Assembly (NCBI GenBank): GCA_016218785.1
Contig: JACRCY010000056.1
Coordinates: 1-35,979, forward strand
DNA: 35,979 nucleotides
Direction of reading: 5' to 3'
Source: Deltaproteobacteria bacterium
GTDB lineage: Bacteria > Myxococcota_A > Polyangia > JACRCY01
The position numbers were made by a program, and so were the translations under genes. The notes beneath the pieces were generated by a model that saw only the letters and a list, made by a program, of their open reading frames with translations, did no database searches and was not told the origin of the DNA. Positions 2,754-34,090 of the stretch are shown piece by piece (within the stretch, counting starts at the first letter, position 1; the number at the start of each line of letters is the position of its first letter).

Positions 2754-2791
2754 CGCAGCCACCCGCCGCAGTCGTGCCCCCGACAAGTCAC

Positions 2792-2820
2792 TTGCCACGA
2801 CTTCGCGGCTTCACTACGAT
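2792..2820 (+). promoter_or_regulatory. sigma70-like promoter candidate (TTGCCA-17 nt-TACGAT), possibly giving a leaderless mRNA
   Basis: TTGCCA at 2792-2797, a 17-nt spacer, TACGAT at 2815-2820, and ATG at 2828 only 7 nt after the -10. No Shine-Dalgarno sequence lies between them. Confidence 0.3.
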
Positions 2821-2827
2821 CATCGAC

Positions 2828-3346
2828 ATGACTAGCCTCGACGGCATCAAGGTCGACGCCCGCAAGGGCGCCGCGTCGTTCGACGTGGACATGCGCATCT
2901 ACGGCATGGACGCCGTGCTGGGTGCGGCCTACGTCTTCATCAACCAGGCCTACGTCTTCCTCGACCAGCCCGGGCCCAACCGGATTCGGGTGCAGCTGTC
3001 CGGCAAGAGCGCGCTCGGCGCGGACGCCGTCACGGCCCTCTGTGGCGACTTCCTCAACGAGCTGCTCGGCCAGGTCCTGCGCGAGCGCACCTCGAAGCGG
3101 TACGGCAAGCTGCGGGAGGCGCTCCTGGCCAAGGCGCTCTTCGCGGCGGCACCGGGCCTCGCGACGGAGGGCACGGCGACGGCCGCGGCCGCGGCGGCGC
3201 CGGGCCCCACGATCGCCGAGCCCTCGCTCGCCGACCTCCCGGCCGACCAGGCGGACTTCCTCGATGACCCGCTGGGGATCGCGACGCCGTGGGAGGACAA
3301 GTACGGCAAGAAGGACGAGGGCAAGAAGGACGAGGGGCAGGGGTGA
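2828..3346 (+). CDS. HxsD-like small protein with an Ala-rich/acidic C-terminal tail ending in a KKDEG tandem repeat
   Basis: The N-terminal ~100 aa fit the pattern I recall for His-Xaa-Ser system protein HxsD: Y..DAVLGAAYVF.NQAYVFLD...IRVQLSGK...L.GDFLNELLGQVLRE...LREALLAKALF (compare the family's 'LLNDYxLRE' motif). Its stop TGA overlaps the ATG of the following HxsB-like rSAM gene (TGATG). Confidence 0.5.
   Translation: MTSLDGIKVDARKGAASFDVDMRIYGMDAVLGAAYVFINQAYVFLDQPGPNRIRVQLSGKSALGADAVTALCGDFLNELLGQVLRERTSKRYGKLREALLAKALFAAAPGLATEGTATAAAAAAPGPTIAEPSLADLPADQADFLDDPLGIATPWEDKYGKKDEGKKDEGQG
3305..3334 (+). repeat. perfect tandem 15-nt repeat GGCAAGAAGGACGAG x2 (encodes GKKDE-GKKDE)
   Basis: Read directly: copies at 3305-3319 and 3320-3334 are identical, in frame, and sit 4 codons before the stop of the HxsD-like gene. 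Confidence 0.9.
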
Positions 3347-4842
3347 TGGGGCGCGCGATGCCGAGGTCCAGGGTCACCAGGCTCCGGTCCAACGAGCCCG
3401 CGCCGCATCGCTTCCGCGCCGTGGCCGGGAAGTGGCTGGTCACGAACGACGTGGGGTCGTACGACTACCTCGATGCCGGCGAGTTCGAGGCCTGGCAGCG
3501 CGGCGAGCTCGCGGAGGCGGATCCGACCTTCGCGCGGCTCAAGGCCAAGGGGCTGGTCGGCGCGGGCTACGACGAGGACGCGGCGGCGGCGCGCCTGTGC
3601 CAGCGCAAGGGCTTCCTCTCGACCGGTCCCTACCTCCACATCTTCGTCGTCTCGCTGCGCTGCAACCAGCAGTGCATCTACTGCCACGCCAGCCGCGCGA
3701 GCATGAAGAGCGCGGGTCGCGACATGACGCCCGAGGTCGCGGACAGGTGCCTCGACCTGGCGTTCCGCACGCCGTCCCCCTACCTCAATATCGAGTTCCA
3801 GGGGGGCGAGCCGCTGGCCAACTGGGACGTGGTCCGCGGCATCGTCGAGCAGGCCACCGCACGCAACCGCGACGCGCGCAAGGAGCTGTCGTTCTCCCTG
3901 GTCACGAACCTGAGCCTGATGGACGAGGAGAAGCTCCAGTTCATTCTCGAACGCGGCATCCAGGTCTGCACCTCCATCGACGGGCCCGAGGCGCTGCACA
4001 ACCACAACCGCAAGTGGACGGAGGGCAACGCCCACGCGGCCACCGTCGAGTGGATGCAGCGGCTGAACGCGGGTTACGTGGCGCGGGGGCTCGACCCCGA
4101 CCTCTACCACGTCGAGGCGCTGCTCACCGTGACCCGTGAGAGCCTGGGCCACGCCCGCGCCATCGTCGACGAGTACGTGCGCCTGGGGCTCAAGGGGGTG
4201 TTCCTGCGGCCCCTCAACCCCTTCGGCTTCGCGGCGAAGACCGACGACAAGATCGGCTACGCCGCCCGCGAGTTCATGCCCTTCTACCGCGACGCCCTCG
4301 ACTACATCATCGACCTCAACCGGCAGGGGGTCGAGATCATGGAGCGGTGGGCGACCATCTTCCTGGCCAAGATCCTCACCGATCAGGATCCCAACTACGT
4401 CGACATCCGCTCGCCCTGCGGGGCCGGCGTCGGCCAGATCGCCTACAACTACGACGGCCAGATCTTCACCTGCGACGAGGCGCGCATGGTCTACCAGATG
4501 GGCGACCCGGCGTTCCGCGTGGGCCAGGCCGGCGAGATCTCGTACGACGAGGTCATCGACTCGAGCGTGGTGCGCTCGCTGCTGTTCGCCTCGACGCAGG
4601 AGGCGCTGCCGCACTGCTCCGAGTGCGCCTACCTACCGTACTGCGGCACCTGCCCGGTCTACAACTACGGCACGCAGGGGAACATCTTCGGCCTGATGCC
4701 GTCGAACCAGAAGTGCATCATGCACATGGCGATCCTCGACCGCCTGTTCGAACTGATGCGCGACGGCGGGGACGAGGTCTTCGGCATCTTCCGGCGGTGG
4801 ACCACCGTGCGGGACCGGCCCTACTACATCATCCACGACTGA
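3346..4842 (+). CDS. radical SAM/SPASM maturase, HxsB-like
   Basis: CxxxCxxC motif (SLRCNQQCIYCHA) and GGEPL. C-terminal SPASM-type Cys cluster (SPCGAG..FTCDE..HCSECAYLPYCGTCPVY). The N-terminal 'F..V.G.WLV.N..G.Y..L...EF' region with LKAKGLV resembles HxsB/HxsC. Start is coupled to the upstream stop. Confidence 0.8.
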   Translation: MGRAMPRSRVTRLRSNEPAPHRFRAVAGKWLVTNDVGSYDYLDAGEFEAWQRGELAEADPTFARLKAKGLVGAGYDEDAAAARLCQRKGFLSTGPYLHIFVVSLRCNQQCIYCHASRASMKSAGRDMTPEVADRCLDLAFRTPSPYLNIEFQGGEPLANWDVVRGIVEQATARNRDARKELSFSLVTNLSLMDEEKLQFILERGIQVCTSIDGPEALHNHNRKWTEGNAHAATVEWMQRLNAGYVARGLDPDLYHVEALLTVTRESLGHARAIVDEYVRLGLKGVFLRPLNPFGFAAKTDDKIGYAAREFMPFYRDALDYIIDLNRQGVEIMERWATIFLAKILTDQDPNYVDIRSPCGAGVGQIAYNYDGQIFTCDEARMVYQMGDPAFRVGQAGEISYDEVIDSSVVRSLLFASTQEALPHCSECAYLPYCGTCPVYNYGTQGNIFGLMPSNQKCIMHMAILDRLFELMRDGGDEVFGIFRRWTTVRDRPYYIIHD

Positions 4843-4913: not shown

Positions 4914-5873
4914 TCACTCCTGAGCCCCGGGGCGGCGGCCGGAGGCGGGCGCGGAGGTGACCGGCACGAACTCGTCCCAGCCGTACGCGTCCAGGTACGT
5001 GCGCCACACGCCCAGGCAGGCGCGCGAGTAGCTGCACCGGTCGCACTCCGCGCGCTTGACCCGGTTCTTCTCTTCCTTGGTCACGCGGGTGGCCTGCAGG
5101 CGCACCACCCCGTCCTTGCCGGGCTCGTCGAACTTGGCCAGCTCCACGTAGCCGCGCACCTCGGCCGGCAGGCCCTCGGTGGTGCACAGGGGCAGGTCCA
5201 CCAGGTAGATCGCAGGCCGGGGCGCGGGCACGGTGTCGAGGAAGCGCCGGAACTCGGCCGCGATGTCCCGGTAGCGCGCCACGAGCTGCTCCACCAGCTT
5301 GCCGGCGCGGCCCAGCGGCTGCATCACGTTGAAGACGTACTCGTCGATGCGATGGGGCTCGAGCAGCCGGTACAGCTCGGCGAGGCGCCGGCAGTTCCGC
5401 TGACCCACGACGGTCGAGGTCTGGACGCGGAACGAGCCTTCGCCCTTGAGGCGGGCGAGCGTCGCGAGACCCGCCATGGTCTGCTCGAAGCTCCGCGGCG
5501 TGCGCGTCTGGCCGTCGTGGCAGCGGGCGTCGGGCCCATGGATCGAGACGACCACCAGGTTGAGCCCCTCGCCCAGGAGCTCGCGGGTGTAGGGCTCGTA
5601 CCCGAGGCGCCGGGCGTTGGTCGTGAGCCCGATGGTGCGGTAGCCGAGCTGCCGCGCCCAGCGGACGTAGACCGGGAGGTTCGGGTTGAGCGTCGGCTCG
5701 CCAGACGTGAACATGACGTCCCCGTCGGCCGCGTGCGCGCGGAGGCTGTCGAGCACCCGCCGCGGGGTGATGCGCGCGTGGAGCTGCATGCGCTTCACGC
5801 GGTCGTCCTCCATGCAGAAGACGCAGTTGTTGTTGCAGGTGGGCCCGGAGAGGATGTGGAAGCGCTCGTGCAC
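4914..5873 (-). CDS. radical SAM protein (short, twitch/SPASM-like C-terminal CxxCx5C tail)
   Basis: GPTCNNNCVFCME motif and SGEPTLNP. C-terminal CDRCSYSRACLGVWRTYLDAYGWDEFVPVT. Paralogous to the genes at 32907..33932, 14440..15783 and 29434..30525. Confidence 0.85.
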   Translation of the reverse strand: MHERFHILSGPTCNNNCVFCMEDDRVKRMQLHARITPRRVLDSLRAHAADGDVMFTSGEPTLNPNLPVYVRWARQLGYRTIGLTTNARRLGYEPYTRELLGEGLNLVVVSIHGPDARCHDGQTRTPRSFEQTMAGLATLARLKGEGSFRVQTSTVVGQRNCRRLAELYRLLEPHRIDEYVFNVMQPLGRAGKLVEQLVARYRDIAAEFRRFLDTVPAPRPAIYLVDLPLCTTEGLPAEVRGYVELAKFDEPGKDGVVRLQATRVTKEEKNRVKRAECDRCSYSRACLGVWRTYLDAYGWDEFVPVTSAPASGRRPGAQE

Positions 5874-5879: not shown

Positions 5880-7379
5880 TCACTCCGCGGCGGCGTCGGC
5901 GAGCCACCTCTGGACCGCGCCCAGCACCGCCTCGGTCTTCGGCGTCAGCGTGCCGCCATGGGAGAGGGCGAACTCCCCGGCGCGCCGGTAGTGGGGGCGG
6001 CCGTCCTGGAACGGCTGGATGACCACCTGCCCGCGGCGCTCGTGCTGCCCGGCGTCCTCGAACTCGACCACCACGTCCTGCAGCGAGGGCCGCACCTCCA
6101 CCTTGCGGGAGCGCTCGAGCCGTTCGATGAGGGGCTGCAGGACCGCCTGCTGCTCGCGCGAGAACAGCGGCCCGCTGTCCTCCTCCCGGGGGTAGAGGAT
6201 CGAGTAGACCTCCTTGCGCGCGCACTGGTACATCACCTTGTCGGGGACGAACTCGTAGTCCTGATCGAAGCAGGCGATCAGGTAGTCCGGCACCAGGGCG
6301 AGGTTGCAGACGCTGCCGAGCGCGAAGACGGAGGTGCCGACCCGCAGCGAGTTCGCACCGCTCGCGAGCCGCTTGAACACGTCCCAGTGGGGCTGCACCG
6401 CGCGGTCGAACTCGGGCGAGAAGAAGCCCACGGCCTCGACGGTGTTGCCGTGGGGGTAGACCGCGTAGCCCGCCTGCGCCGCCGCCGCCGCCATCCCGGC
6501 GCCGGTCTCCTCGAGGTATCGCTCCATGGTCGCGACCCGGTCGGGCGACGGCGCCGCCCCACCGTCCGCGAAGTAGTTGGCGTCGAGGAGGTTGACGATG
6601 ACCGAGTCGGGCCGGATCTCCATCAGGGCGCGGAAGTTCTCGAGGAACTGCGCGGCCGTCTCGTCGCGCAGGCCGAGCACCAGGTCCAGGTTGCAGTGGA
6701 TCCCGCGCGCCTGGGCGGAGCGCACGCGCCGGGCGAGGCGCCCGGGCTCGATCGCGAACATGGCGCTCGACCGGCGGGTGACGGGCTGCAGCGTCTGCAC
6801 GCCCATGCTGATCCGCGGGATCCCGAACTCCGCGAGCACGTCGAGGGTGGCGTCGTGGGCCGTCGGCACCGACATCTCGAAGGTGTTCACCGGGTTCTCG
6901 GCGCGCACCTCGAAGCGCTCGTGGAAGCGGGTGAAGAGGCGGCGCAGCTGCGCGGGGGAGAGGATGGAGGGGGTGCCGCCGCCCACGGAGAAGTAGCGGA
7001 TCGGCGTGTCGTGGAAGAGGGGCGCGAAGAAGTCCATCTGCGCGCAGACGAAGTCCACGAAGCGGTCGAGGAAGTTGCGCCCGTGCGCGAGCTTGAGGCG
7101 GAAGCAGCGGCAGAAGCTGCACGTGTGGGTGCAGAAGGGCACGTGGAAGTAGATGCCCACCGGGTAGTCGCTCGCCACGCCCGGGGTGGCGAGCTGGCGG
7201 CGCCACAGCTCGGCGAGCTGCGCCGGGGTGTAGCGGCCGTGCCGGTCGCCCCACGGCGGATCGTAGACGTCGAAGTCGACGAAGCACGGCCGGTCCAGGA
7301 TCCCCAGGTGCCCGGCCAGCCTCCAGCCATCGAGGAGCTGGCTCGGGCGCCGCCGCGGGACCGTGTCGCGGAGCCTCAT
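5880..7379 (-). CDS. HemN/HemW-like radical SAM protein with a C-terminal shared accessory domain
   Basis: YFHVPFCTHTCSFCRCF and SVGGGTPS, hallmark motifs of the HemN-like family. ATG 7379 overlaps the upstream stop (ATGA). The rest of track ORF 5880..7958 is Arg/Pro-rich and overlaps the U32 gene. The last 86 aa (5883-6140) are one copy of the shared domain. Confidence 0.85.
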   Translation of the reverse strand: MRLRDTVPRRRPSQLLDGWRLAGHLGILDRPCFVDFDVYDPPWGDRHGRYTPAQLAELWRRQLATPGVASDYPVGIYFHVPFCTHTCSFCRCFRLKLAHGRNFLDRFVDFVCAQMDFFAPLFHDTPIRYFSVGGGTPSILSPAQLRRLFTRFHERFEVRAENPVNTFEMSVPTAHDATLDVLAEFGIPRISMGVQTLQPVTRRSSAMFAIEPGRLARRVRSAQARGIHCNLDLVLGLRDETAAQFLENFRALMEIRPDSVIVNLLDANYFADGGAAPSPDRVATMERYLEETGAGMAAAAAQAGYAVYPHGNTVEAVGFFSPEFDRAVQPHWDVFKRLASGANSLRVGTSVFALGSVCNLALVPDYLIACFDQDYEFVPDKVMYQCARKEVYSILYPREEDSGPLFSREQQAVLQPLIERLERSRKVEVRPSLQDVVVEFEDAGQHERRGQVVIQPFQDGRPHYRRAGEFALSHGGTLTPKTEAVLGAVQRWLADAAAE

Positions 7380-8506
7380 CTCCTGCCCCGTGTTCCGGGG
7401 CGGTCGACCATCTCCGGGAGCTTCCTCCCGTCGGGCTCGATCGCGGCCTGCCGCGCCTGCCGCAGCGCCTCGACGTACGGCCCGGCGCCGTCGACGCGGA
7501 CGGCCCGCTCCGCGAGCTGGTCGCAGAGCGTGCAGGAGACCTCGCACTCCCGGGCACAGTCGATCGCGGCGACGGCGCCGAGGAAGCCGTCCAGGGCGCG
7601 GTTGTCCACGACGATGCGCGGCGGATCCATGCCGTCGCCGCTCCACATGCCGAGGTCCGAGAGGTCGACGAGGTTCCCGTCCCACCGCCGCTCGAGGTAG
7701 GCCCGGGCCGCCCGGAGCAGCCAGTCGGCGTCGCGGCCCCGGCCCGCGATCTTGATGAAGTCGATGCCGCGCTCCTCGTACGCCGCGACGTCCTCGGGAC
7801 GGATGAAGCGGGCCTTGAGCAGCTCGCCCGGGTGCACCATCCGCTCGAGGGAGCAGTTCATGTGGGGGTACTCGACGGGCGGCCGCGACGCGTGCTGCAA
7901 CGAGGCGTGGGACATCAACCCGTAGTGGTAGGGGCGCATCGGGCACTGGAACCGGCACATCTCGTTCGCCAGCAGCTCCAGCTCGAGGCCCGCCTTGTCC
8001 GCGAGCGAGCGCAGCAGGTCGAGGTCGCGGTTGATCCGCGTGGCGAGCGTGATGCGGCGGGCGCCGATCTCGCGGTAGGCGCGGACCGTCGCGAGGGAGT
8101 CGACGTGCGTGATGGTCGAGATCACCACCTCGATCCGGGGAGCCACCTCGCGGGCCAGCTCCACCAGGAGCGGGGTGGCGACCGTCACCGCGTCGGCGCC
8201 GATGGAGTCGACCCAGCGCAGCTGACGCACCAGGTCGGCGCGGCCCCGGGCGGTGAACTCGGCGCCGCCCGTGCAGGCGCCGTTCATGAGGTAGTTGAAC
8301 CGGATGCCGGCGGCGTGGGCCGCCGCCACGTGACGCCTCACGGCCGCGGCGGTGACGGGGGGGAGGAGCGCGGCGTCGCGCCCGCTCCCGGTGGCGCTGC
8401 GCGGCAGGGAGCCGAAGACCTCGTGCACGGTGGCGCCGGGGCGCGACAGCGCCGCCAGGCGCCGCAGGAACCCGTCGTCCCAGCAGGTCGCGATGCAGAT
8501 CCTCAT
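7376..8506 (-). CDS. peptidase U32 family protein (divergent; Fe-S type predicted)
   Basis: TIM-barrel-like U32 layout (MRICIATCWDD.., EVFGSLP...GSGR, AVTVATPLL, RITLATRINRDLDLL, LLANEMCRFQCPMRPYHY) plus a C-terminal Cys cluster CARECEVSCTLC. It does not carry the exact C-x4-G-x-C signature. Confidence 0.6.
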   Translation of the reverse strand: MRICIATCWDDGFLRRLAALSRPGATVHEVFGSLPRSATGSGRDAALLPPVTAAAVRRHVAAAHAAGIRFNYLMNGACTGGAEFTARGRADLVRQLRWVDSIGADAVTVATPLLVELAREVAPRIEVVISTITHVDSLATVRAYREIGARRITLATRINRDLDLLRSLADKAGLELELLANEMCRFQCPMRPYHYGLMSHASLQHASRPPVEYPHMNCSLERMVHPGELLKARFIRPEDVAAYEERGIDFIKIAGRGRDADWLLRAARAYLERRWDGNLVDLSDLGMWSGDGMDPPRIVVDNRALDGFLGAVAAIDCARECEVSCTLCDQLAERAVRVDGAGPYVEALRQARQAAIEPDGRKLPEMVDRPGTRGRR

Positions 8507-8516: not shown

Positions 8517-9878
8517 CTAGCCGCGCACCTCGTACGACTGGCCCCCGGCCCCGGCGGCAGCCACGATCTCGGCGCGGCGCAGCTCGTTGCTCATCCGCTC
8601 GACCAGGTTGACCAGCCCACGGAAGAACAGGAAGGGGCGTTCCTCGAGGACATGCGTGAAGTAGGAGGGGAACCCCAGCTCCAGCACCGCGGCCCGGATC
8701 GCGCGTGGGGGGTAGCCGATGCTGTTGGTCACGAGCAGGTCGCAGCGGCCCTGACCGACGAGCGCCATGGTGTCCCGCTCGAGGGCCCGTTGGGTCGGGT
8801 CGATCACCACGCCTGCCTCGCCGATCCGTGCGAGCAGCTCGCGCGCGTGCACCCGGCGGCAAAGCACGAAATGGCGCTCGAGCCGCAGGCCCAGCTCCTC
8901 GGCCACCGGCTCGAAGGCGAGGGCGAGGTGGGGATCGCCCACGAAGACGAGCGTGCGGTGCAGCAGGTAGTGGGGCACCGCCCACTCGATCTTGGGCACC
9001 GCGTGCTGCAGCTCGGCGTCGGTCACGGCCGCGAGGCGGCCGCCCCGCCCGAGCGCCTCGGCGACCTGCGCGAGCCACCGCTCGCTGCCGTGGAGCCCGA
9101 GGGGGAGGCCGGTCTCGACGAGCGGCACCTGGAGGCGCTCCGCCAGGATCCGGGCCGCGTCCCGCGCGTAGGGCAGCGAGACGATGGCCGACGCGTGGCG
9201 CACCGCGCGCAGGTCGGCCACCGAGCCACCCGAGAGCCACACCGAGCCCAGGCGCAGGCCGAGCGCCGCCAGCAGCCGCCGCAGCTCGGCGAGGTTGCCG
9301 CGGTGGTCACCCTCGGCCCGGTCCATGAGGTAGCCGACCACGGCCACGTTGCCGCCTTTCGGCTTGTGACCGTCGAGGTCGATGACGCGCGCGAGCACCT
9401 TGAGCGTGTCGGCGAAGCCGTCGAGCCAGTCGCCGGTGAGCCCGTTGCCCGGCACGTTCACGACCGGCTTCCCGATCTCGAGGCTCACGGGGCGCGTCAG
9501 CCGGTCGTAGTCGACGCCGGTGATGGTGGCCATGGGCATCGAGGTCACGAAGACGGCCCCGGCCCCCGAGTACGAGGCCAGCTCCTTGAGCATCCCTCCG
9601 ACCTGGTCGTCGCGGGCGGCGACGATCTTCCAGGGGTGGAGGTCGGTGTTGGCCACGCGGTGGATGCCGTCGACGCTGGTCAGCGTGGAGAACCAGTCGT
9701 GGTTGCTCTGGAGGTACTGGGTCTTGAGGTGGGCGCAGTCGGGCGCGTCGACCAGGAGGTACGCGTCGCTGATCGCGTTGACCGCGAGGTAGCAGCCGAT
9801 CGTGAACGAGAGCGAGACGCGGCCCGAGTAGTCCACCTCGGTCGTGGGGGCCGCCATCGGGTTCTGGGGGGCGCTCAC
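8517..9878 (-). CDS. nitrogenase component-1-like subunit (NifK/NifN/BchB-type)
   Basis: Oxidoreductase-nitrogenase architecture: LVDAPDCAHLKTQY, TDL....V...DDQVGGMLKEL, AVFVTSMPMATITGVDYD, VAVVGY and three Rossmann-like segments. GTG 9878 overlaps the upstream stop (GTGA). Alternative starts are ATG 9857 or the track start 9989, which would overlap the previous gene by 115 nt. Confidence 0.75.
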   Translation of the reverse strand: MSAPQNPMAAPTTEVDYSGRVSLSFTIGCYLAVNAISDAYLLVDAPDCAHLKTQYLQSNHDWFSTLTSVDGIHRVANTDLHPWKIVAARDDQVGGMLKELASYSGAGAVFVTSMPMATITGVDYDRLTRPVSLEIGKPVVNVPGNGLTGDWLDGFADTLKVLARVIDLDGHKPKGGNVAVVGYLMDRAEGDHRGNLAELRRLLAALGLRLGSVWLSGGSVADLRAVRHASAIVSLPYARDAARILAERLQVPLVETGLPLGLHGSERWLAQVAEALGRGGRLAAVTDAELQHAVPKIEWAVPHYLLHRTLVFVGDPHLALAFEPVAEELGLRLERHFVLCRRVHARELLARIGEAGVVIDPTQRALERDTMALVGQGRCDLLVTNSIGYPPRAIRAAVLELGFPSYFTHVLEERPFLFFRGLVNLVERMSNELRRAEIVAAAGAGGQSYEVRG

Positions 9879-11812
9879 GACCGCCGCTCCCTGGCCGGGC
9901 GCGGCGCCCTGGCCGGCCGTGGGGCCTGCGCCGGCCGCGCGGTGCCCGGCAGGAACCGGTGGTAGCGCCGGAAGAGAGGCAGCCGGCACACCTCGAGCAG
10001 GCGCTCGGCCGTGCGCAGCGCTCCCTCGACGCCCTTCTCGAACTCCTGGAGGTTGAACTGCGCCTTGCCGGCGGCGCCGAGGCGATGGTCGCCGACGTAC
10101 TCGGAGAAGACCGCGGCGAAGGTCCCCTCGGCGAGGAGCTTCCCCAGGCGGTCACGGTCCAGGAACGCCTTGATGCGGTGGCGCGCGGGCTCGGCGAGAA
10201 GCGCGTTCACCTGGGTGGCGGCCTGGCGCGCGGTCCCGCGGTCGGTCACGCGGATGAGCACGTCGAGCCCGAACCCCAGCTCCTCGCACATGGCGAGCAG
10301 CGGCACCCCCCAGGTGGCCGCCGGGTCGCAGAGGCGGTGCACCTCCTCGGAGCCGATGACGAACCCCAGGCGGTACCCGGCGGCCTCCCGGCGCAGCGCC
10401 TCCCACCGCTCCTGGTGCGGCGCCAGGCAGCGCGCCACGACCGCGCCCGTGTCGGCCTTGACCCCGGCCGCCTCGGCCACCGCCTCGAGCCACCGGCGGG
10501 TGCCGGCGAGCCCGTACGGGGCGGGGGGCTCGATGGAGCGGATGCCGGAGTCGAACAGGAGCTGGTCATAGAGGTTCTGCCACAGCGCGTTCGGGTAGAG
10601 CACGTGCAGCGGCGCGTGGGGCAGCTGCGGGATCACCGAGAAGTTCATCTGCGGGATGAACACGGCGTTCACGCGCAGACCGAGATCGCCGAGCAGGCCC
10701 GAGAGCTCGTCCAGGGCCGCGTCGCGTGCGAAGCCGATGAGGTTCACGGCGCGCGGGTCGGCCTTCCCCGCGAGCGCCGCCTCGGCCGCCTGCCGCTGCC
10801 GGACCAGCACCTCGCGGAACACCCCGAGGCTCGACTGAGGAGTGGTGGTCAGGTAGAAGAACGGCCGCTTCGTCCGGCCGCGGTAGCGCCTGACCACCGA
10901 TTCGACGTCCTCGCCCGTGACGAAGGGGACGCAGGTGCAGGAGAGGAACAACATGTTGTCGACGCCGCGCTCCATGACGTGGTCGAGCACGGTGGTGAGC
11001 TTGTCGAGCCCTCCCATGACCACGTCGCGCTCCCCGAGGTCGGTGGTGACCATCTGGTGCCGCTCGGGCGCGGGCGCCGCGGTGGGCGGCGCCGCGGCCG
11101 GGGAGGGCTTGCCGGCGGGCGCCGGGGGCACCCTGCCGATCCGCCGGAGGCGGTCGAGCCAAGGGTAGTAGACCTTGTCCACCATGGGGACGGCGGTGTG
11201 CGGCGTCACTTGGAGGCAGTCGCGGTCGCAGTGCTGGATGAAGCTGCACCGCTCGAAGATGTCGAGGGAGTCGAGCCGGCCCCGCGCCGTCTCCGCGACG
11301 GCGAAGAACTGGTACCACATGTCCTCGGAGGCCCAGGTGCTGAGCAGCGACTGCCGGTCGTAGGCGGCCTGGTCTTCGGGGTTGCCGCGCGGCAGGCGGT
11401 CGCGCACGGGGTCCACGTCGGTGTCCGCGGCGACGAGCGCCGCGAGGTCCTCGATGGTCCGGCTCTCGAAGCGCGTGAGGCCCACCGCGGCGAGCTTGAC
11501 CTCGAGGTCGGGCCACATGGCCGGGCCGCGGTAGTACAGGATCAGGTGGTCGCTCCGGCACAGGCTCGGCTTGTCGACCTGGTACCGGTCGAGGAAGAAC
11601 GTGACGACGTGGTCTTCGGCGCCGTCCACCTCGACCTCGAGGTGGTCGACCACCCAGCCGACCGCCCCCACCCGGGTCTCGCCCGGGCCGGCCTCGGGGT
11701 CGAGGTTGAGCAGGCGCGCGAACTCGGCGCGGGTGCGGGGTCCGCCCGCGAGGGTCCTGCCCTGCAGCCGCCCCCGGTCTGCGCCTTGCTCGCAGGCCGT
11801 CTGGCGGCTCAC
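9875..11812 (-). CDS. nitrogenase component-1-like subunit (NifD/NifE/BchN-type) with an N-terminal shared accessory domain
   Basis: CSFIQHCDRDC, TTDLGERDVVMGGLDKL, NMLFLSCTCVPFVTGEDVESV and VNLIGF. A Pro/Ala-rich insertion (PPAPAGKPSPAAAPPTAAPAP) is present. GTG 11812 overlaps the NifH-like stop (GTGA). This start is supported by homology of residues ~28-116 (11465-11731) to the shared domain; an internal ATG at 11518 would cut that domain. Confidence 0.72.
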   Translation of the reverse strand: MSRQTACEQGADRGRLQGRTLAGGPRTRAEFARLLNLDPEAGPGETRVGAVGWVVDHLEVEVDGAEDHVVTFFLDRYQVDKPSLCRSDHLILYYRGPAMWPDLEVKLAAVGLTRFESRTIEDLAALVAADTDVDPVRDRLPRGNPEDQAAYDRQSLLSTWASEDMWYQFFAVAETARGRLDSLDIFERCSFIQHCDRDCLQVTPHTAVPMVDKVYYPWLDRLRRIGRVPPAPAGKPSPAAAPPTAAPAPERHQMVTTDLGERDVVMGGLDKLTTVLDHVMERGVDNMLFLSCTCVPFVTGEDVESVVRRYRGRTKRPFFYLTTTPQSSLGVFREVLVRQRQAAEAALAGKADPRAVNLIGFARDAALDELSGLLGDLGLRVNAVFIPQMNFSVIPQLPHAPLHVLYPNALWQNLYDQLLFDSGIRSIEPPAPYGLAGTRRWLEAVAEAAGVKADTGAVVARCLAPHQERWEALRREAAGYRLGFVIGSEEVHRLCDPAATWGVPLLAMCEELGFGLDVLIRVTDRGTARQAATQVNALLAEPARHRIKAFLDRDRLGKLLAEGTFAAVFSEYVGDHRLGAAGKAQFNLQEFEKGVEGALRTAERLLEVCRLPLFRRYHRFLPGTARPAQAPRPARAPRPARERRS

Positions 11813-12630
11813 GCGCGGCCCTGCAAGAAGGCGAAGAACTCGTCGTCGGTCATGGTCTTGGGCGGCCCTATCGTGCTGGGGTCGAGGGCGAGGGCCTCGT
11901 CGGCGAGCGAGCGCACCGACCGGGCGAAGACCGAATCGGGGGCCCACTCGACGACGGTGCGGCGTTCCTTCTCGGCGGCGATCACGTCCGGGTCGTGCGG
12001 CAGGAATTGCGCGATCCGCGTCCCCAGCCGCGCCGCGAACCGCGCGAGCAGGTCGCGGTCCGTGTCGGGGAGGCACGAGTTGGCGATGATCCCGCCGAGC
12101 ACCACGCCGTTCGCGGCGTAGCGGCGGACGGCCCGCGTGATGTTGTTCGCCGCGTACAGCGACATGGGCTGCTCCGACACCACGATGTAGACCTTGCGCG
12201 CGAACCCGAGGCGGAGCGGCGCGGCGAAGCCGCCGCACACCACGTCACCGAGGACGTCGAAGACGACCACGTCGTAGATGCCGTTGGAGAGCACCCCCTG
12301 CTCGTCGAGGAACTCGATGGTCCGCGCCACGCCGCGGCCGGCGCAGCCGGTGCCCGGATCGGGGCCGCCGGCCTCGACGCAGTCGAGCCCGTGCCGGCCG
12401 CGGTTGATGATGGTCGCCACCGAGAGCGAGTCGGGGTCCTGGCCGATGAGGTCCATGACCGTCGCCAGGCGCCCCGAGTCGATCAACCTGATCGCGGAGT
12501 CGCGCTTGGGGTCGCAGCCCACGTGGAGCACGCGCTTCCCCGCCATGCCGTAGCACGCGCTGAGGTTGGTGGCGATCACCGACTTGCCGATGCCACCCTT
12601 GCCGTAGATCGCGATCTGTTCCACGTTCAC
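11809..12630 (-). CDS. NifH/BchL/CfbC-family ATPase (nitrogenase-like Fe protein)
   Basis: P-loop IYGKGGIGKS and switch I CDPKRDS. Both 4Fe-4S ligand contexts are present (GTGCAGRGV and FDVLGDVVCGGFA), followed by YIVVSEQPMSLYAANNI. GTG start. Confidence 0.92.
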   Translation of the reverse strand: MNVEQIAIYGKGGIGKSVIATNLSACYGMAGKRVLHVGCDPKRDSAIRLIDSGRLATVMDLIGQDPDSLSVATIINRGRHGLDCVEAGGPDPGTGCAGRGVARTIEFLDEQGVLSNGIYDVVVFDVLGDVVCGGFAAPLRLGFARKVYIVVSEQPMSLYAANNITRAVRRYAANGVVLGGIIANSCLPDTDRDLLARFAARLGTRIAQFLPHDPDVIAAEKERRTVVEWAPDSVFARSVRSLADEALALDPSTIGPPKTMTDDEFFAFLQGRA

Positions 12631-14439: not shown

Positions 14440-15783
14440 ATGGCTGCACGTGCGCCGCGCAGGACGCGCCCCCGGGGGGGCCCGCGCTGGCTGCAGGCGC
14501 TCGTCGAGGAGCTCCGGTGCGCGAGCGCCCCAGCCCGCTCGGCGTCCGCCATCGGCGGGGTGCTCAAGGTGGAGCTCTCCGGGCCCGCCGAGCTGACGGT
14601 CGAGGTCAAGCCGATCGAGCCGGGCCGCGAGTACTTCTGCCAGACCGCTCGCTTCGGTGTGAGCTACTGCGGGTCCCGCAACCTGACGCCTCCCCAGGAG
14701 GCGGCCCTGGGCCGCTTCACGGAGGTGCTGCGGCGCGTGGAGGCCGAGCTGCCGGAGGTCCTCGAGGCGGCCGTGGGCGTCGGGGCACCGGGTGAGCGCG
14801 CCGCGGGCGACGCGCCCGCGCACACGGTGGAGTACTCGCAGAGCGCGAGCGGCGACGAGCGGTCGTGCGAGCTGCTCCTCCGGCTGACCTCGCGCTGCAA
14901 CCAGGACTGCCCCTTCTGCTCGGCGCCGCCGCCCCACGCCGAGCCCACGCTCATGGCGGCGCTGACGTTCCTCGACGGGGTGCTTCCGCGGCTGCCCCGG
15001 CCCATGGTGACGCTCACCGGCGGCGAGCCCACGATCTGGCCGCACCTGCGCGAGCTGGTCGAGCGTCTCCTCGGGCGGCCGGACACCCCGCGCGTGAGGG
15101 TCCAGACCAACGCCGTCGCGTTTGCCGACCCGGGCGCGCTCGATGGCTGGCCCCGCTCCGACCGCCTCTCCTTCTTCGTGTCGTTCCATGCGGCGGAGGC
15201 CCGCCTGTACGACCACATCACCGGGAGCACCGGTCACCTCGAGCGCGCGGTCGCGGGAACCCGGAACCTCGCGCAGACCGGCTGCCCGGTCGTGCTCAAC
15301 CTGGTCGCCACCCGCTTCAACCTCGATCACGTGCTCGACTGGGTGCGCGCCGTGCCCGAGCTGTTCCCCGCACCGGGCACCCCTACGATCCACTTCTCGA
15401 TTGCCATGTGCCCGGAGCACCGGCCGGGCGCGCTCGACTGCCTCGTGCGCTACACCGACCTAGCCCCGCGGCTCCAGGCGGCCGCCGCGCTCGCCGCGAG
15501 GCTCGGCGTCGACTGCGAGCCCCTGCTGGCCTCGTCGCACGCCGCCATCCCGCCGTGCCTCCTCGACGAGGAGTACCGGGTGCGGGGGGGCTCGTGCGGC
15601 GCGGGCCGGGGCGCCCTGCCGGTGCAGCGCCGCGACGAGGTCGGGATCGAGGACCTCCGCAAGCCCTGGATCAAGGCGCGGACCTGTGCACGCTGCACCG
15701 AGGACCCCTTCTGCCTCGGGCTGCCGCGGCCCTACGTGGCCCGCTTCGGCCTGGGGGAGCTGCGACCCATCGAGCGGACCTGA
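14440..15783 (+). CDS. radical SAM protein with an N-terminal shared accessory domain and a CxxCx5C tail
   Basis: RLTSRCNQDCPFCSA and LTGGEPTIWP. C-terminal CARCTEDPFCLGLPRPYVARFGLGELRPIE. Residues 17-101 (14488-14742) are a copy of the shared domain. Confidence 0.85.
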   Translation: MAARAPRRTRPRGGPRWLQALVEELRCASAPARSASAIGGVLKVELSGPAELTVEVKPIEPGREYFCQTARFGVSYCGSRNLTPPQEAALGRFTEVLRRVEAELPEVLEAAVGVGAPGERAAGDAPAHTVEYSQSASGDERSCELLLRLTSRCNQDCPFCSAPPPHAEPTLMAALTFLDGVLPRLPRPMVTLTGGEPTIWPHLRELVERLLGRPDTPRVRVQTNAVAFADPGALDGWPRSDRLSFFVSFHAAEARLYDHITGSTGHLERAVAGTRNLAQTGCPVVLNLVATRFNLDHVLDWVRAVPELFPAPGTPTIHFSIAMCPEHRPGALDCLVRYTDLAPRLQAAAALAARLGVDCEPLLASSHAAIPPCLLDEEYRVRGGSCGAGRGALPVQRRDEVGIEDLRKPWIKARTCARCTEDPFCLGLPRPYVARFGLGELRPIERT

Positions 15784-15788: not shown

Positions 15789-17489
15789 ATGCCCGACGTG
15801 GCCTTCGTCTCCGCGCCCATTGACCTTCACCCTGTCGGAGCCGTCCCGCGGCCGTCGTCCCGCCCGGCATCGCGCCGGAGCGGCAGCCGCCGGGCCGCGC
15901 GGCCGAGGGCGGCCGGCCAGGCCCGTGCCCGGGCTGGCGCGAAGCCGCCGCGCCCCGGGCTGCTGCTCGTGGAGGCGCGGCGACCGCCCCGGCTGGGGGA
16001 CGCCAACGCCGAGCCGTTTCCCTTCATCGCCGGCTACGCCGAGAGTCGACGCGTTCCGGTGCGCTGGATCTGCTTCCCGCACGAGGCCTGGGCCCCGGCC
16101 CCCAGCCCCTTCCTGCTCGACCTGACCTCCCGGGCCCGGCAGCAGCTGCTCGCGCAGGTCGCGGCCTGCGGAGCGTCCCACCTGATCCTCTCCGAGGTGC
16201 CCGCACCGGCGCTGCGCAGGTTCCTCTCGCGTGAGCGGCCCGGGCTGCAGGTCCGGCACTGTGCCTCGCCCCGCAGCTCCTACTCGAGCGACTGGCTCGC
16301 CGCCTGGCTCGGCATCACCGGCGAGCGCGAGGGCTTCCTTCCGGACCTGGCCTCGCCTTCGTACCGGTCCGTCCCTGCCGGCGGCCCGGTCCCCGCGGCG
16401 CCGACGCCCGTGATCGGCTCGGCGCCGTGCCTCTATGCGGCACCCCTCGGTGACAATCCCGCGTATGGCGACGTCGACCTCTCCGGCATCGAGCGCAAGT
16501 TCGCCTGCGCGTTCTGCCCGGGCCCGCCGGATCTCAAGTACCGCTACCGCACGCCTCCCCTCGACCTGGCGATGCGCCAGATCGCGGCCGTGCGCGCCGA
16601 GCCGGAGACGGTGTGGAGCCGCTCCCAGTTCGTGATCCGCTCGGCCGCCGTCTTCTTCGCCATGTCGAAGCTGTTGCAGCGCCTGGAGCTGGAGGCGGCC
16701 GCGCCCGTCTCGCTGTTCTTCGGTTGCCGGGCCGACGAGGTCCTGGCGCGCGCGGACGACATCGCCGCGGCGCTGGCCATCGCGCGGCGCTGCGGGCACG
16801 CCATCCACGTCTTCTCCATGGGGGTGGAGAGCTTCTCCCCCCCCGAGAACGAGCGCTTCAACAAGCGGCTCTCCGCCGCCACCGTCGGCGCGGCCCTGCG
16901 GCGCTTGCGCGAGTGGGAGCGCGAGTACCGCGGCACCTTCTTCTTCACTCGTCATGGCGGCCTGGGGTTCATCCTGTTCACGCCCTGGACGACGCTCGAG
17001 GACCTGCGCCTGAACCTGGCCGCCGCGCGGGAGCTGGGCCTCGAGGAGGATGGCTTCTTCCTGACCCGGCGGGTCATGCTCCTCGGCGACACTCCGCTGC
17101 TGCGCCTGGCCGAGCACGACGGCCTGGTCGACCCCTCCGCCGCGCAGGATCGGGCGCTGTTCGAATGGCTCCAGCGGCACTGCGACCCGGGATGCCGCCG
17201 ATTCTTCGAGGAGCAGGACCGCCCGTGGCGCTTCCGCGAGGCCGTCACCGCGCGGGTCTGCGCCATCACCGTGCGGATGGCGAAGCTCGACGCCATCGTC
17301 GAGGACGACCCCCATCACCGGCGGATCGTGGAGGCCGTCCGGTCCTCGAGGGTGCGCCTCCTCGATGCCTTCTCGGCGCTGCTCGGGATCGCCGAGGACC
17401 ACCGCGAGGCCCCCCTCAAGGTGCTGCTCGAGGGCTGGCTCGATTGGCTGCGTCGTGCCCCGGCGGGCGCGCGGGGCGACCGGCCGTGA
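15789..17489 (+). CDS. radical-SAM-like (class-B-like TIM barrel) protein with a non-canonical Cys motif
   Basis: SMGVESFSPPENERFNKR and GFILFTPWTTLEDLRLNL resemble the rSAM core of B12-binding/Elp3-type enzymes. The cluster motif, however, is PC-x25-CAFC rather than CxxxCxxC. ATG start 5 nt after the upstream stop. Clear paralog of the gene at 34091..>35979. Confidence 0.6.
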   Translation: MPDVAFVSAPIDLHPVGAVPRPSSRPASRRSGSRRAARPRAAGQARARAGAKPPRPGLLLVEARRPPRLGDANAEPFPFIAGYAESRRVPVRWICFPHEAWAPAPSPFLLDLTSRARQQLLAQVAACGASHLILSEVPAPALRRFLSRERPGLQVRHCASPRSSYSSDWLAAWLGITGEREGFLPDLASPSYRSVPAGGPVPAAPTPVIGSAPCLYAAPLGDNPAYGDVDLSGIERKFACAFCPGPPDLKYRYRTPPLDLAMRQIAAVRAEPETVWSRSQFVIRSAAVFFAMSKLLQRLELEAAAPVSLFFGCRADEVLARADDIAAALAIARRCGHAIHVFSMGVESFSPPENERFNKRLSAATVGAALRRLREWEREYRGTFFFTRHGGLGFILFTPWTTLEDLRLNLAAARELGLEEDGFFLTRRVMLLGDTPLLRLAEHDGLVDPSAAQDRALFEWLQRHCDPGCRRFFEEQDRPWRFREAVTARVCAITVRMAKLDAIVEDDPHHRRIVEAVRSSRVRLLDAFSALLGIAEDHREAPLKVLLEGWLDWLRRAPAGARGDRP

Positions 17490-18376: not shown

Positions 18377-18388
18377 CCGCGCGGCGCG

Positions 18389-18406
18389 GAGGTGGCTTGC
18401 CACCTC
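18389..18406 (+). other. intra-operon GC hairpin
   Basis: GAGGTGGC-TT-GCCACCTC perfect inverted repeat, 13 nt after the deacetylase stop and 36 nt before the next start. Could be an attenuator or processing site. The 2-nt loop means the effective stem is shorter. Confidence 0.25.
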
Positions 18407-18441
18407 GGCGGCCCGGCGGTAGAGTCGGGCGTCGAGGTACC

Positions 18442-20061
18442 GTGAAGCGGCACCCGCTGCGCAACTCGCTCGCCACGCTGATCGAGGACGGTCGGGCGCT
18501 CGTGGTGGAGACGCCGGCGCACGAGCGGTACCCCGTCGACACGGGCGTCCTGTCGCTCACCTCGCGCTGCAATCTCGGCTGCGTGATGTGTCTCGAGCCC
18601 CGCGGGCCGGAGCCCGTCGATCTGCCGTTCGACGAGGCGAGGCGCTTCGTCGAGATCTTCGCCGGCCGCGTCCCCAGGATCTGGACCTGTGCCGGAGAGG
18701 CGCTCCTCTACCCCCGGTTCTTCGAGCTCGGCCGGGCGATCTTCCAGCGCGGCACGCGACTGGGCGTCGGGACCAACGGTCTCGTGCTCGGCAACCCGAA
18801 GGTCCTGCAGCGTTGCGCCGACGCCGGCGTCCGGTGGCTGCACGTCTCCTGCCACACGTCCCGGCCCGAGCGGTTCATGCGCTTGACGGCGACCACCGAC
18901 CGGCGGCGCTTCGACCAGTTTGTCCGCGGCCTCCGGAACGTCGACGAGTGGAACCGCGACCACGGGCCCGACCGCCGCTTCGACGTGCTCCTCCAGCTCG
19001 TGCTGATGAGGCCTTTCGACGAGGAGATCGAGGAGTACCTGGACTTCGTCGTCCGGCACCTCGCCCACAGCCCCCTGATGATCCGGGTCGAGCCGATGCA
19101 GCCCATGAACGCGGGCGCGGAGCACCCGGAGCTCCAGTACGACCTGGCCGAGCTGGGGCGGATCGTTCGCCACCTCATCGAGGAGCACTCGGGACGCGTC
19201 AAGCTCGAGTTCAAGTCCATCCCGCTCTGCATGCTGGACGGCTCCGAGGGGGCGTCCGAGGACCTCTGCACGCGGGCCGCGGGGACCGTGGTCGTGGGCA
19301 ACCTGGGACACCAGTCGGGCGGGCTGCAGCTGCAGTGCCCGATCGGCGACCCGGCGGACAGCGCCTGCGCCGCCACCTGCAGCGGGTGCCGCCTCGGGTG
19401 CCTCTGCCCCGGGGTCATGGACAACCCGGTGCCCGAGGGGTGCGCGTGGCCTCGGCCCGTCTCCGCGTCCGCGGTGCAGCTGCTGGCCCGACTGGGCCTC
19501 CGGACCGACTTCGCGGAGCGCAAGTTCTCGCTCGTGTACCCGCGCCGCTTCAACGCACCGGACCCGGAGGCACCAGAGCCGCCTGCTCGGCGGTCTCTCG
19601 CGGCGGCCCCGCCGCGCGAGGGCACGGTGGCGGGCCTGAGCGACGAGCAGCTCGGGCTGGGGCCCGAGTCGCCGCGGCGCTTCACGTCGGCCGAGATGGG
19701 CCGGATCGAGGGGATCGTCCGCGCCCTGGCGCGCGAGGACCTGGTGGCGGAGTCACGGGTCTCCCACCGGTTCGCGGCGCTCTCGCTCCGGACCGCGGAT
19801 CGCCCGTCGGGGCCCTGCCTCGTGATCCTCGAGCCCGCGCGAGCCTCGACCCCGTGCTGCTTCGCGGCGGCGGGGGTCGCGGTCCGCTACAACGGCCAGC
19901 TGACCCTAGCCCTGCAGGGGCACCTCGATCGTATCCGGCGCCTCCTCGCGTCGGCCGGCTTGCCGGGGCCGGCGGTCACCGGTCGCGAGGGCGCGGGCAC
20001 GCGCCGGGTGCGGAGCCGGCGCCAGCCTCGCGGGCGCGCCCGGTCGAGAGGCCGTTCCTAG
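18442..20061 (+). CDS. radical SAM protein with a Cys-rich twitch/SPASM-like region and a C-terminal shared accessory domain
   Basis: GTG 18442 preceded by GAGG. LSLTSRCNLGCVMCLEP. Cys cluster CPIGD..CAATCSGCRLGCLCPGV. Shared-domain copy at 19702-19959, then an Arg-rich tail. Confidence 0.82.
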   Translation: MKRHPLRNSLATLIEDGRALVVETPAHERYPVDTGVLSLTSRCNLGCVMCLEPRGPEPVDLPFDEARRFVEIFAGRVPRIWTCAGEALLYPRFFELGRAIFQRGTRLGVGTNGLVLGNPKVLQRCADAGVRWLHVSCHTSRPERFMRLTATTDRRRFDQFVRGLRNVDEWNRDHGPDRRFDVLLQLVLMRPFDEEIEEYLDFVVRHLAHSPLMIRVEPMQPMNAGAEHPELQYDLAELGRIVRHLIEEHSGRVKLEFKSIPLCMLDGSEGASEDLCTRAAGTVVVGNLGHQSGGLQLQCPIGDPADSACAATCSGCRLGCLCPGVMDNPVPEGCAWPRPVSASAVQLLARLGLRTDFAERKFSLVYPRRFNAPDPEAPEPPARRSLAAAPPREGTVAGLSDEQLGLGPESPRRFTSAEMGRIEGIVRALAREDLVAESRVSHRFAALSLRTADRPSGPCLVILEPARASTPCCFAAAGVAVRYNGQLTLALQGHLDRIRRLLASAGLPGPAVTGREGAGTRRVRSRRQPRGRARSRGRS

Positions 20062-33932: not shown

Positions 33933-34036
33933 GCGTCCACCTGGAGCGGAGCAGTCTTCATCGGCCGTCTCCCCGTGCGCCGTGCTGTCAGCGTAGCACT
34001 CCTTGGCCCGCCGACCCAGGGCTCCGCTGATGTGAC

Positions 34037-34052
34037 TGGTCCCTGCACTGCT
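34037..34052 (+). promoter_or_regulatory. sigma54-type (-24/-12) promoter candidate
   Basis: TGGTCCCTGCACTGCT: GG at 34038-34039 and GC at 34050-34051, with the canonical spacing of TGGCAC-N5-TTGC. About 40 nt upstream of ATG 34091. Only the core dinucleotides and the flanking T match. Confidence 0.25.
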
Positions 34053-34090
34053 TGCCTGACGGGGACCTTTCTGCCAAGGTGAGTGGGACG

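Follow-up and report, generated by a model that had tools for sequence, protein, structure and literature searches.

A Group VI-type nitrogenase-like gene triad in a radical-SAM-rich island of a deltaproteobacterial genome

What are three nitrogenase-like genes doing at the head of an operon of radical S-adenosylmethionine (SAM) enzymes? The question is raised by contig JACRCY010000056.1 of Deltaproteobacteria bacterium assembly GCA_016218785.1, the 35,979 nucleotides of which are here called the window. The genes encode a NifH-type ATPase (H) and two proteins of the nitrogenase component-1 type (D and K). A first-pass annotation of this DNA had described them as a start/stop-coupled triad in a setting that is not nif, bch or cfb, neither a nitrogenase with P-cluster and FeMo-co nor a member of any characterised clade, and had proposed an ATP-driven low-potential reductase acting on the substrate of the surrounding gene island. 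The present analysis places the triad in Group VI of the nitrogen fixation-like (NFL) systems, where it probably acts as a low-potential reductase of two components, driven by ATP and unable to fix N2, that serves the island.

The triad and its place among nitrogenase-like systems

With a base composition of 72% G+C, the window holds numerous spurious open reading frames (ORFs), from which genuine genes are told by a G+C fraction at the third codon position of 0.84-0.97. The H, D and K ORFs have values of 0.88-0.95 and are thus three genuine minus-strand genes (Table 1). The start/stop overlaps that couple them were read directly from the DNA as GTGA at 11809-11812 (H/D) and 9875-9878 (D/K). 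H matches the Pfam model Fer4_NifH with 271 bits, and Oxidored_nitro is matched by K over its whole length (136 bits) and by D over amino acids 252-471 (95 bits). The P-loop (GKGGIGKS), switch I (CDPKRDS) and both cluster cysteines, Cys96 (GTGCAGRG) and Cys132 (DVLGDVVCGGF), are intact and match solved NifH residue for residue, which confirms the P-loop, switch regions and cluster cysteines reported earlier; H was aligned to MarH as well. GKGGIGKS, C39, C96 and C132 are invariant in the H family, and with these motifs intact H is predicted to be ATPase-competent.

Relatives of these genes have been met before. NifH paralogues designated 'Group VI' were reported from Elusimicrobia, two Gracilibacteria and fourteen Myxococcales genomes, where up to 13 radical-SAM genes, some of them B12-binding or HemN-like, accompany them, and tetrapyrrole reduction was proposed as their function (Meheust et al., 2020, bioRxiv 10.1101/765248). 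Group VI is described as having no characterised member, no NifB, no FeMo-co ligands and at most four cysteines over the six P-cluster positions (Chem Rev 2026, PMC13474568, section 7). The same source notes that genomes having Group VI systems only contain no NifB, and calls the role of uncharacterised NFL systems a main open challenge. The view that the context of the triad was unrecognised therefore has to be given up, since a setting rich in radical-SAM genes is typical of Group VI and was published in 2020. In the literature after 2020, no functional work on Group VI was found, nor any nitrogenase-like enzyme in pathways of ribosomally synthesized and post-translationally modified peptides (RiPPs).

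The triad is filed under Group VI because of its homologue pattern, the listing of a genome with a related locus, the monophyly of its H family, equivalog scores below every cut-off, and a link through a neighbouring gene, g14. Sixty-nine homologues of D were found among 5.8 billion clustered proteins, nearly all of 590-690 amino acids, in metagenomes and metagenome-assembled genomes (MAGs) of Myxococcota (Polyangia, 'Deltaproteobacteria'), Oligoflexales and Bdellovibrio. An Elusimicrobia MAG encodes a shorter D homologue (P0067; 432 amino acids, 33% identity) beside a K of 41% identity and adjoining a radical-SAM gene, and we infer that these genes are 'Group VI'. One related locus (L020) lies on a scaffold of MAG B64_G9 and carries a pair of H genes, of 58% and 51% identity to the window H, along with one D (37%) and two K; Supplementary Dataset 2 of Meheust et al. 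(2020) names 'Deltaproteobacteria bacterium B64_G9' as a carrier of Group VI nifH. Enhygromyxa salina SWB007, an organism available in culture, is likewise listed with Group VI nifH. In a neighbour-joining tree the window H groups with all H proteins from D-linked loci, including both B64_G9 copies, and this family is monophyletic with respect to three NifH, VnfH, MarH, BchL and BchX in 100 of 100 bootstraps. Finally, the g14 protein has 14 homologues among the 5.8 billion proteins, two of them from Elusimicrobiota MAGs, a second and independent link from the window locus to the Elusimicrobia loci.

The earlier statement that the triad belongs to no characterised clade was upheld by this monophyly and by the NCBIfam equivalog models, whose cut-offs lie far above the scores obtained. 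H scored 283 with nifH (cut-off 394), 273 with CfbC (402), 192.7 with BchL (345) and 159 with BchX (331). D scored 20.7 with nifD (653.6), 47.6 with nifE (505) and 26.4 with the CfbD model TIGR03282 (268). The BchN model gave 32.7 (D) and 39.9 (cut-off 420), BchB 28.7 and 36.7 (490), BchZ 22.8 (529) and N2-ase-Ialpha 31 and 38 (486). In hhalign alignments D and K are 17% and 15% identical to NifD and NifK, respectively. By profile, H scores 223 bits with NifH, 221 with MarH and 154 with BchL, and the nearest relatives of D are MarD (86 bits) and then NifE (77 bits). The AlphaFold2 model of D (predicted local distance difference test score, pLDDT, 86.3; predicted template modelling score 0.85) gave MarD (E 2e-16, 19% identity), NifEN (E about 1e-14) and NifD as best Foldseek matches. 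Judged by both profile and model, D is nearer to MarD and NifE/NifD than to BchN or BchY. The triad lies outside the Nif, Mar and CfbCD families and outside dark-operative protochlorophyllide oxidoreductase (DPOR) and chlorophyllide oxidoreductase (COR), each of which fails in at least one defining feature. On sequence grounds it is assigned to the Myxococcota branch of Group VI as its NflHDK, and no new branch of the superfamily is called for.

Cluster ligands of D and K

Ligand positions were mapped with hhalign against family profiles (64 sequences for D and 29 for K), annotated NifHDK, BchLNB and BchXYZ proteins from public plasmid records serving as references (Table 1). All of the D and K motifs quoted in the first-pass annotation were found, namely CSFIQHCDRDC, LSCTCVPFVTGED, TSMPMATITGVDY and LVDAPDCAH, as was the Pro/Ala-rich insertion of D. 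A family-conserved cysteine occupies three of the six P-cluster positions, as D C199, D C294 and K C48 (each 100%); the positions of NifD Cys62, NifK Cys70 and NifK Cys153 have none. The cysteine that binds FeMo-co in NifD, Cys275, corresponds to Pro407. At the NifD His442 position the window protein has Tyr572 and the family consensus is His, in a region where the alignment is unreliable. A P-cluster is excluded, and the claim that this is no P-cluster/FeMo-co nitrogenase stands.

The ligand set of D and K supports a single inter-subunit [4Fe-4S] cluster as its natural reading, in agreement with what has been said of Group VI (PMC13474568). The first-pass annotation had been more specific, with three ligands from one subunit and one from the other as in DPOR and COR, and this holds in part. 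The invariance of C199, C294 and K C48 speaks for it, but the third ligand from D would be C195, which stands at a non-canonical position four residues ahead of Cys199 and occurs in 75% of homologues. Neither Cys189 (25% of homologues) nor Cys292 (38%) is conserved, and there is no cysteine at the NifD Cys62/BchN Cys26 site. K Cys29 might also contribute, which would turn the ligation in the window enzyme from 3 + 1 into 2 + 2. Moreover, a [4Fe-4S] cluster held by three cysteines of one subunit and one of the other is the arrangement of NifEN too. A DPOR/COR-like 3 + 1 site is thus just partly supported, because of the position and incomplete conservation of C195, the option of K Cys29 and the likeness to NifEN.

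Table 1. Genes, domains, motifs and mapped ligand positions of the window
Feature	Position	Strand	Remarks
nflH-like gene	11809..12630	(-)	273-amino-acid NifH-type ATPase; P-loop, switches I and II, cluster Cys96 and Cys132
nflD-like gene	9875..11812	(-)	645 amino acids; N-terminal accessory domain and nitrogenase component-1 core; GTG start over H stop
nflK-like gene	8517..9878	(-)	453 amino acids; GTG start over D stop codon
U32-family gene	7376..8506	(-)	Same operon as triad; Pfam
HemN-like (class C) radical-SAM gene	5880..7379	(-)	Same operon; accessory domain at C-terminus
HxsC4-like radical-SAM gene	4914..5873	(-)	Last operon gene; NF038332 325 bits, cut-off 500
HxsD-like and HxsB gene pair	2774..4842	(+)	HxsD-like 2774-3346, TIGR03976 49.3, cut-off 50; HxsB 3289-4842, TIGR03978 527, cut-off 370
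g13, HxsC-like radical-SAM gene	14440..15783	(+)	Accessory domain at N-terminus
g14	15969..17489	(+)	Rare divergent radical-SAM-like protein; no Pfam model; C-x25-C-x2-C
Further radical-SAM gene	18373-20061	(+)	Accessory domain near C-terminus
B12-binding radical-SAM gene	25024-26982	(+)	Accessory domain at C-terminus
Two tandem MiaB/RimO-like methylthiotransferase genes	26995-29453	(-)	51% mutual identity, E 1e-156
Second U32 gene	30600-32015	(-)	Accessory domain at C-terminus
g27	34034..35977	(+)	g14 paralogue; 31% identity to g14
Accessory domain, D (amino acids ~18-130)	11423..11761	(-)	Four beta strands and helices
Accessory domain, g13	14482-14814	(+)	N-terminus
Accessory domain, HemN-like radical-SAM protein	5883-6167	(-)	C-terminus
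Accessory domain, second U32 protein	30603..30893	(-)	C-terminus
Accessory domain, B12-binding radical-SAM protein	26641..26979	(+)	C-terminus
Accessory domain, further radical-SAM protein	19675..19977	(+)	Near C-terminus
Pro/Ala-rich insertion of D (amino acids 228-252)	11057..11131	(-)	Predicted disordered, pLDDT <50; mostly gap in homologues
FIQHCDRDC, D amino acids 191-199	11216..11242	(-)	H194 and C199 invariant; D196 nearly invariant; C195 in 75%
SCTC, D amino acids 291-294	10931..10942	(-)	C294 invariant; C292 Cys in 38%
NifD Cys62 / BchN Cys26 position			D Ala171 / Phe170; no Cys in family
NifD Cys88 / BchN Cys51 position			D Cys199; invariant
NifD Cys154 position			D Cys294; invariant
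NifD Cys275 (FeMo-co) position			D Pro407; Pro nearly invariant
NifK Cys70 position	9791-9793		K Cys29 (codon); tentative alignment; Cys in 3% of homologues
NifK Cys95 / BchZ Cys / BchN Cys51 position	9735-9737		K Cys48 (codon); sole invariant Cys of K
NifK Cys153 position			K, inside TSMPM; no Cys, like BchZ (TGSIAEMIGG)

The accessory domain and the gene island

The first 190 residues of D fall outside the nitrogenase fold and are modelled as a confident alpha/beta domain (pLDDT 85.5 for the domain alone). That this N-terminal domain is shared with other proteins, as had been proposed, was borne out by profile search and hhalign; an all-vs-all BLASTP of the window proteins missed it, and profile methods alone revealed it. 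A profile of 60 homologues of the D domain weakly matched five other window proteins, which brings the copies in the window to six, each of about 70-110 amino acids. By eye, the copies have in common two successive strands followed by 'C[FY]....G.a.SY.G' and 'LTP.....L'. The domains of D and g13 are considered homologous because their families aligned in hhalign with 95.2% probability (E 2.7e-8, 107 columns).

The domain is rare, a six-copy profile having recovered just 37 proteins among 1.84 billion representatives at E<=1e-3. A Pfam run on 32 of these gave Radical_SAM in 12, Oxidored_nitro in five, B12-binding in three, Peptidase_U32 and UPF0004 (MiaB-like) in two each, and ABC_tran and Trp_halogenase in one each; several bearers are short stand-alone proteins of 68-199 amino acids. 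The domain itself has no relevant Pfam match at E<=10, no model for it existing, and no relation to HxsD was detectable in profile comparisons. Its identity with PqqD, or with a RiPP recognition element (RRE), was considered and rejected, as Foldseek returned no significant match, with type III secretion system chaperones, KA1 and stefin having E values near 1. A single module carried by many tailoring enzymes of one pathway is how RREs behave, and it is conjectured that the domain most likely brings its bearers to one substrate, carrier or complex. A tandem pair of domain copies was observed in a 789-amino-acid D protein (P0044) from a Deltaproteobacteria MAG (L001, GCA_029210625.1 JARGFU010000018.1, 4210-13806), where one H gene stands between two D/K pairs.

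The triad heads a six-gene operon whose downstream joins are overlaps or gaps of no more than 10 bp, so that the unbroken run into U32, HemN-like and radical-SAM genes described before was confirmed. The U32 and HemN-like genes (5880-8506, minus strand) overlap by 4 bp. In the locus of an 89%-identical relative (the P0001 contig), U32 and Radical_SAM are fused in a 917-amino-acid protein two genes past K, after a 512-amino-acid ORF that has no Pfam match, and this fusion suggests that the U32 and HemN-like proteins form a functional unit. Hydroxylation without O2 is a known activity of U32 proteins. Convergent with the end of the operon lies the HxsD-HxsB pair, in the canonical order of HxsD before HxsB. 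Directly upstream of HxsD, ORF 2118-2753 (plus strand) encodes a lipoprotein-like product (signal peptide and Cys) that is Pro/Ala/Ser-rich and has three 'SQP' repeats; it fits no known family, is not conserved in related loci and as a substrate or precursor candidate is speculative.

At least 12 proteins encoded in the 36 kb match Radical_SAM, in addition to two divergent radical-SAM-like genes, and the related loci are likewise rich in such genes. Four of these proteins, g13 among them, are HxsC-like; a canonical HxsC was not found in the window (best score 67.7 against a cut-off of 267.9). The g14 family is marked by an invariant C-x25-C-x2-C and by invariant radical-SAM-like motifs, 'SMGVENFS' and 'GFILFTPWT'. 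Both members of the tandem MiaB/RimO-like pair fall under every tRNA and S12 equivalog cut-off. A 330-amino-acid ORF (32012-33004, minus strand) without a Pfam match lies directly upstream of the second U32 gene, overlaps it, and may be a divergent U32 partner akin to the UbiU/UbiV pair. The remaining island genes encode a GT2 glycosyltransferase, a GATase/WbuX-like amidotransferase, a carbamoyltransferase, a polysaccharide-deacetylase-like protein and an esterase, and the island continues at the right end of the window. As the first-pass annotation had held, no nif, bch or cfb accessory gene occurs among the genes of the 36 kb; nifB, nifE, nifN and nifV are likewise missing there, and neither a flavodoxin nor a ferredoxin gene was seen. 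A defence-system identity was rejected, PADLOC having given just generic similarity of radical-SAM proteins to viperin.

In tblastn comparisons K adjoins D in 25 of 27 related loci, the two exceptions being contigs that end at D; the genes also adjoin each other in two further loci (L028 and L029), and an 826-amino-acid protein in L033 may be a D-K fusion. A g13-like radical-SAM gene was found in every related locus with an H gene and enough flank to judge, and g14-like genes recur in about nine. Fusion of g13 and g14 in other genomes, suspected from long ORFs, was rejected since the g14-like genes proved to be separate ORFs. A second locus type (L003, L009-L015 and L021) lacks an H gene within 10 kb of the D-K pair. 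All of these except L012 encode a homologue of the B12-binding radical-SAM protein, and at L003 the gene for it directly precedes D.

Possible function and comparison with known systems

The most reasonable reading, by analogy, remains an ATP-driven low-potential reductase for the island substrate. Cys96 and Cys132 of an H homodimer would hold a bridging [4Fe-4S] cluster, and the dimer would bind and hydrolyse MgATP, dock on the D/K heteromer and inject single electrons. Each electron would pass to a lone inter-subunit cluster of the [4Fe-4S] type at the P-cluster site, with D Cys199, D Cys294 and K Cys48 as ligands and probably D Cys195 as the fourth; in homologues that have no Cys195, His194 or Asp196 may take its place. 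D/K could then reduce an intermediate of the island product that g13, g14 and other tailoring enzymes also work on. The N-terminal domain of D may serve to recruit D, g13, the HemN-like, B12-binding and further radical-SAM proteins and the U32 protein to a common substrate, carrier or complex.

The leading candidate for the island substrate is a ribosomal peptide or protein, with about an even chance of being correct. It is favoured because HxsB exceeds its trusted cut-off, with HxsD at the borderline, and because HxsC-like radical-SAM and MiaB/RimO-type enzymes are present. Enzymes of the MiaB/RimO type include protein-modifying members. HxsB, HxsC and HxsD have been found experimentally to mature the protein HxsA, the four forming the HXS antiphage protein-maturation system (Nat Commun 2026, PMC13128918). 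Some other small molecule is possible and clearly less favoured, and an enzyme that has no substrate, its role being electron injection or scaffolding, is quite unlikely. A more specific proposal, that Myxococcota Group VI systems act on a ribosomal peptide or protein, or on a scaffold-tethered substrate, through a new recognition domain of ~110 amino acids, is put forward tentatively, as one that is rather unlikely to prove right. If true, it would make the triad the first nitrogenase homologue to work on such a substrate, and the accessory domain a functional equivalent of RREs with a different fold, common to radical-SAM, B12-binding radical-SAM, HemN-like, U32 and MiaB-like proteins and, elsewhere, an ABC ATPase. 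Electrons of nitrogenase-grade potential would then be used for reduction in the maturation of peptide natural products or effectors; were the substrate a peptide, the maturation of RiPPs or effectors would gain a new reaction class, low-potential reduction coupled to ATP.

Several points weigh against this picture of a reductase serving a peptide- or protein-modifying island. No precursor peptide was found in the window, and a precursor of the HxsA type was rejected after a six-frame scan of the window for clustered H-x-S motifs gave none. The GT2, deacetylase, amidotransferase and carbamoyltransferase genes would also fit a sugar-bearing small molecule. The modelled accessory domain has no match in the PDB at E<=0.001 by Foldseek (best 0.49). 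Of the 27 related loci, about half have an H gene within 10 kb of D and the rest have none in that interval. CfbC, IsrH and the Elusimicrobia H proteins of Group VI are absent from the H tree, on which the placement partly depends. The mechanism, moreover, is drawn wholly by analogy with DPOR, COR, CfbCD, Mar and Isr (PMC13474568) because no Group VI member has been characterised.

Among the other explanations, a tetrapyrrole reductase making a novel cofactor is the published one, D/K reducing a porphyrinoid C=C bond and the HemN-like and B12-binding radical-SAM proteins tailoring the macrocycle. The proposal drew on the phylogenetic placement of the group and on neighbours of the HemN_C and B12-binding kinds (Meheust et al., 2020; PMC13474568). 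The window does encode a HemN-like and a B12-binding radical-SAM protein, and the ligand pattern of K, one cysteine and none at the NifK Cys153 site, resembles that of BchZ. However, the 36 kb yielded no gene of tetrapyrrole biosynthesis, the HemN-like protein matches the radical-SAM core only and has no HemN_C match in Pfam, and what a B12-binding domain points to is a cofactor and not a substrate. D is also nearer to MarD and NifE than to BchN or BchY, H is nearer to NifH than to BchL, and the island contains types of protein maturase (HxsB/HxsD, HxsC-like and RimO/MiaB-like) along with sugar-modifying genes. Since protein-maturase-type and tailoring enzymes dominate the context, the sole published suggestion is weakened and is regarded here as improbable. 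It is also decidedly improbable that NflHDK feeds low-potential electrons to the radical-SAM and B12-binding radical-SAM enzymes of the island, the accessory domain being a docking element. Such a role would suit the sharing of a rare domain by D and five redox or radical enzymes, which depend on reduced [4Fe-4S]1+ or cob(I), the B12-binding radical-SAM gene at loci with no adjacent H, directly upstream of D in L003, and the failure to find a gene for flavodoxin or ferredoxin in the window. General flavodoxin/ferredoxin systems normally serve radical-SAM enzymes, however. The superfamily offers no precedent either, as every characterised member reduces a bound substrate (PMC13474568). The occurrence of the domain on an ABC ATPase, a halogenase-like protein and stand-alone proteins fits recognition of a substrate or carrier better.

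A scaffold like NifEN, in which D/K with a radical-SAM partner assembles or matures a metallocluster for another island enzyme, would agree with NifE as the second-best relative of D in sequence and structure, with the 3 Cys + 1 Cys site, and with the radical-SAM partner conserved next to the triad. It is nevertheless very unlikely, as no NifB-type protein (radical-SAM and NifX domains) is encoded in the window, the cofactor-binding cysteine position is Pro, the rest of the island resembles tailoring chemistry, and NifB is absent from Group VI-only genomes (PMC13474568). A functional but divergent nitrogenase, to which the intact H and the H-D-K arrangement might point, is effectively refuted by three P-cluster positions that have no family-conserved cysteine, the Pro at the FeMo-co cysteine position, the nifD score and the absence of nifB, nifE, nifN and nifV from the window.

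A reductase of the Group VI type thus remains the preferred reading. Group VI is the one NFL clade without a characterised member. The locus leaves the classification unchanged and its existence will not surprise specialists; its new features make the function of Group VI more directly testable. The conserved core for joint expression would comprise H, D, K, the g13-like radical-SAM protein and the g14-like protein, and the rare accessory domain on D and neighbouring enzymes could be used as bait for the real substrate.

Of the characterised systems, MarHDK (Group IV-C; PDB 9d9u and 9fmg) is the best match of D in sequence and structure and, like the window triad in its probable role, uses ATP in a two-component system to reduce a substrate other than N2. 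The identity of D to MarD is nevertheless low, and the window H family stands apart from MarH. MarHDK keeps P-cluster-type ligation and needs the NifB-like MarB (PMC13474568), whereas D/K have family-conserved cysteines at three of the six positions and the window has no NifB-like gene. DPOR and COR (Group V) replace the P-cluster with a single inter-subunit [4Fe-4S] cluster, as is inferred for D/K, and K is like the COR subunit BchZ in having one cysteine, which aligns with NifK Cys95, and none opposite Cys153. In DPOR the ligands are three cysteines of the N subunit (26, 51 and 112) and Asp36 of B; K has Cys48 at the BchB Asp36 site, and D has no cysteine at the BchN Cys26/BchY first-Cys position. 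The window also has no bch context, its scores with the models of these enzymes are far below the cut-offs, and D is nearer to Mar, NifE and NifD. CfbCD has a single homomeric catalytic subunit, in contrast to the two distinct component-1 genes of the window. NifEN carries a simple [4Fe-4S] cluster at the P-cluster site and is second to Mar in likeness to D, but the nifE score is about a tenth of the cut-off, NifB is missing and the cofactor-site cysteine position holds Pro. The Mo, V and Fe nitrogenases have six P-cluster cysteines (alpha 62, 88 and 154; beta 70, 95 and 153), and of these positions alpha 62, beta 70 and beta 153 hold no family-conserved cysteine in D and K, although K Cys29 of the window may occupy beta 70.

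The window shares with the HXS antiphage system (PMC13128918) an HxsB above the cut-off, a borderline HxsD, the order of these two genes and several HxsC-like radical-SAM paralogues. It differs in having no HxsA, no ORF with His-Xaa-Ser repeats in any of the six frames and no canonical HxsC, and in that the genes lie inside a 36-kb tailoring island. The closest agreement is with Group VI, with which the triad shares intact H motifs, divergent D and K, many radical-SAM neighbours and a gene set without NifB in the window; outside Myxococcota, D, K and g14 have their closest relatives in Elusimicrobia. Unlike the Elusimicrobia homologue P0067, the window D bears the N-terminal accessory domain of ~110 amino acids, and its island adds HxsB/HxsD-type maturases, two U32 proteins, two MiaB-like enzymes and sugar-modifying genes. 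The accessory domain of D and its sharing, the Hxs-type maturases and the g14 family appear to be undescribed in the two accounts of Group VI (Meheust et al., 2020; PMC13474568), and these are the features that the Myxococcota locus adds to the group.

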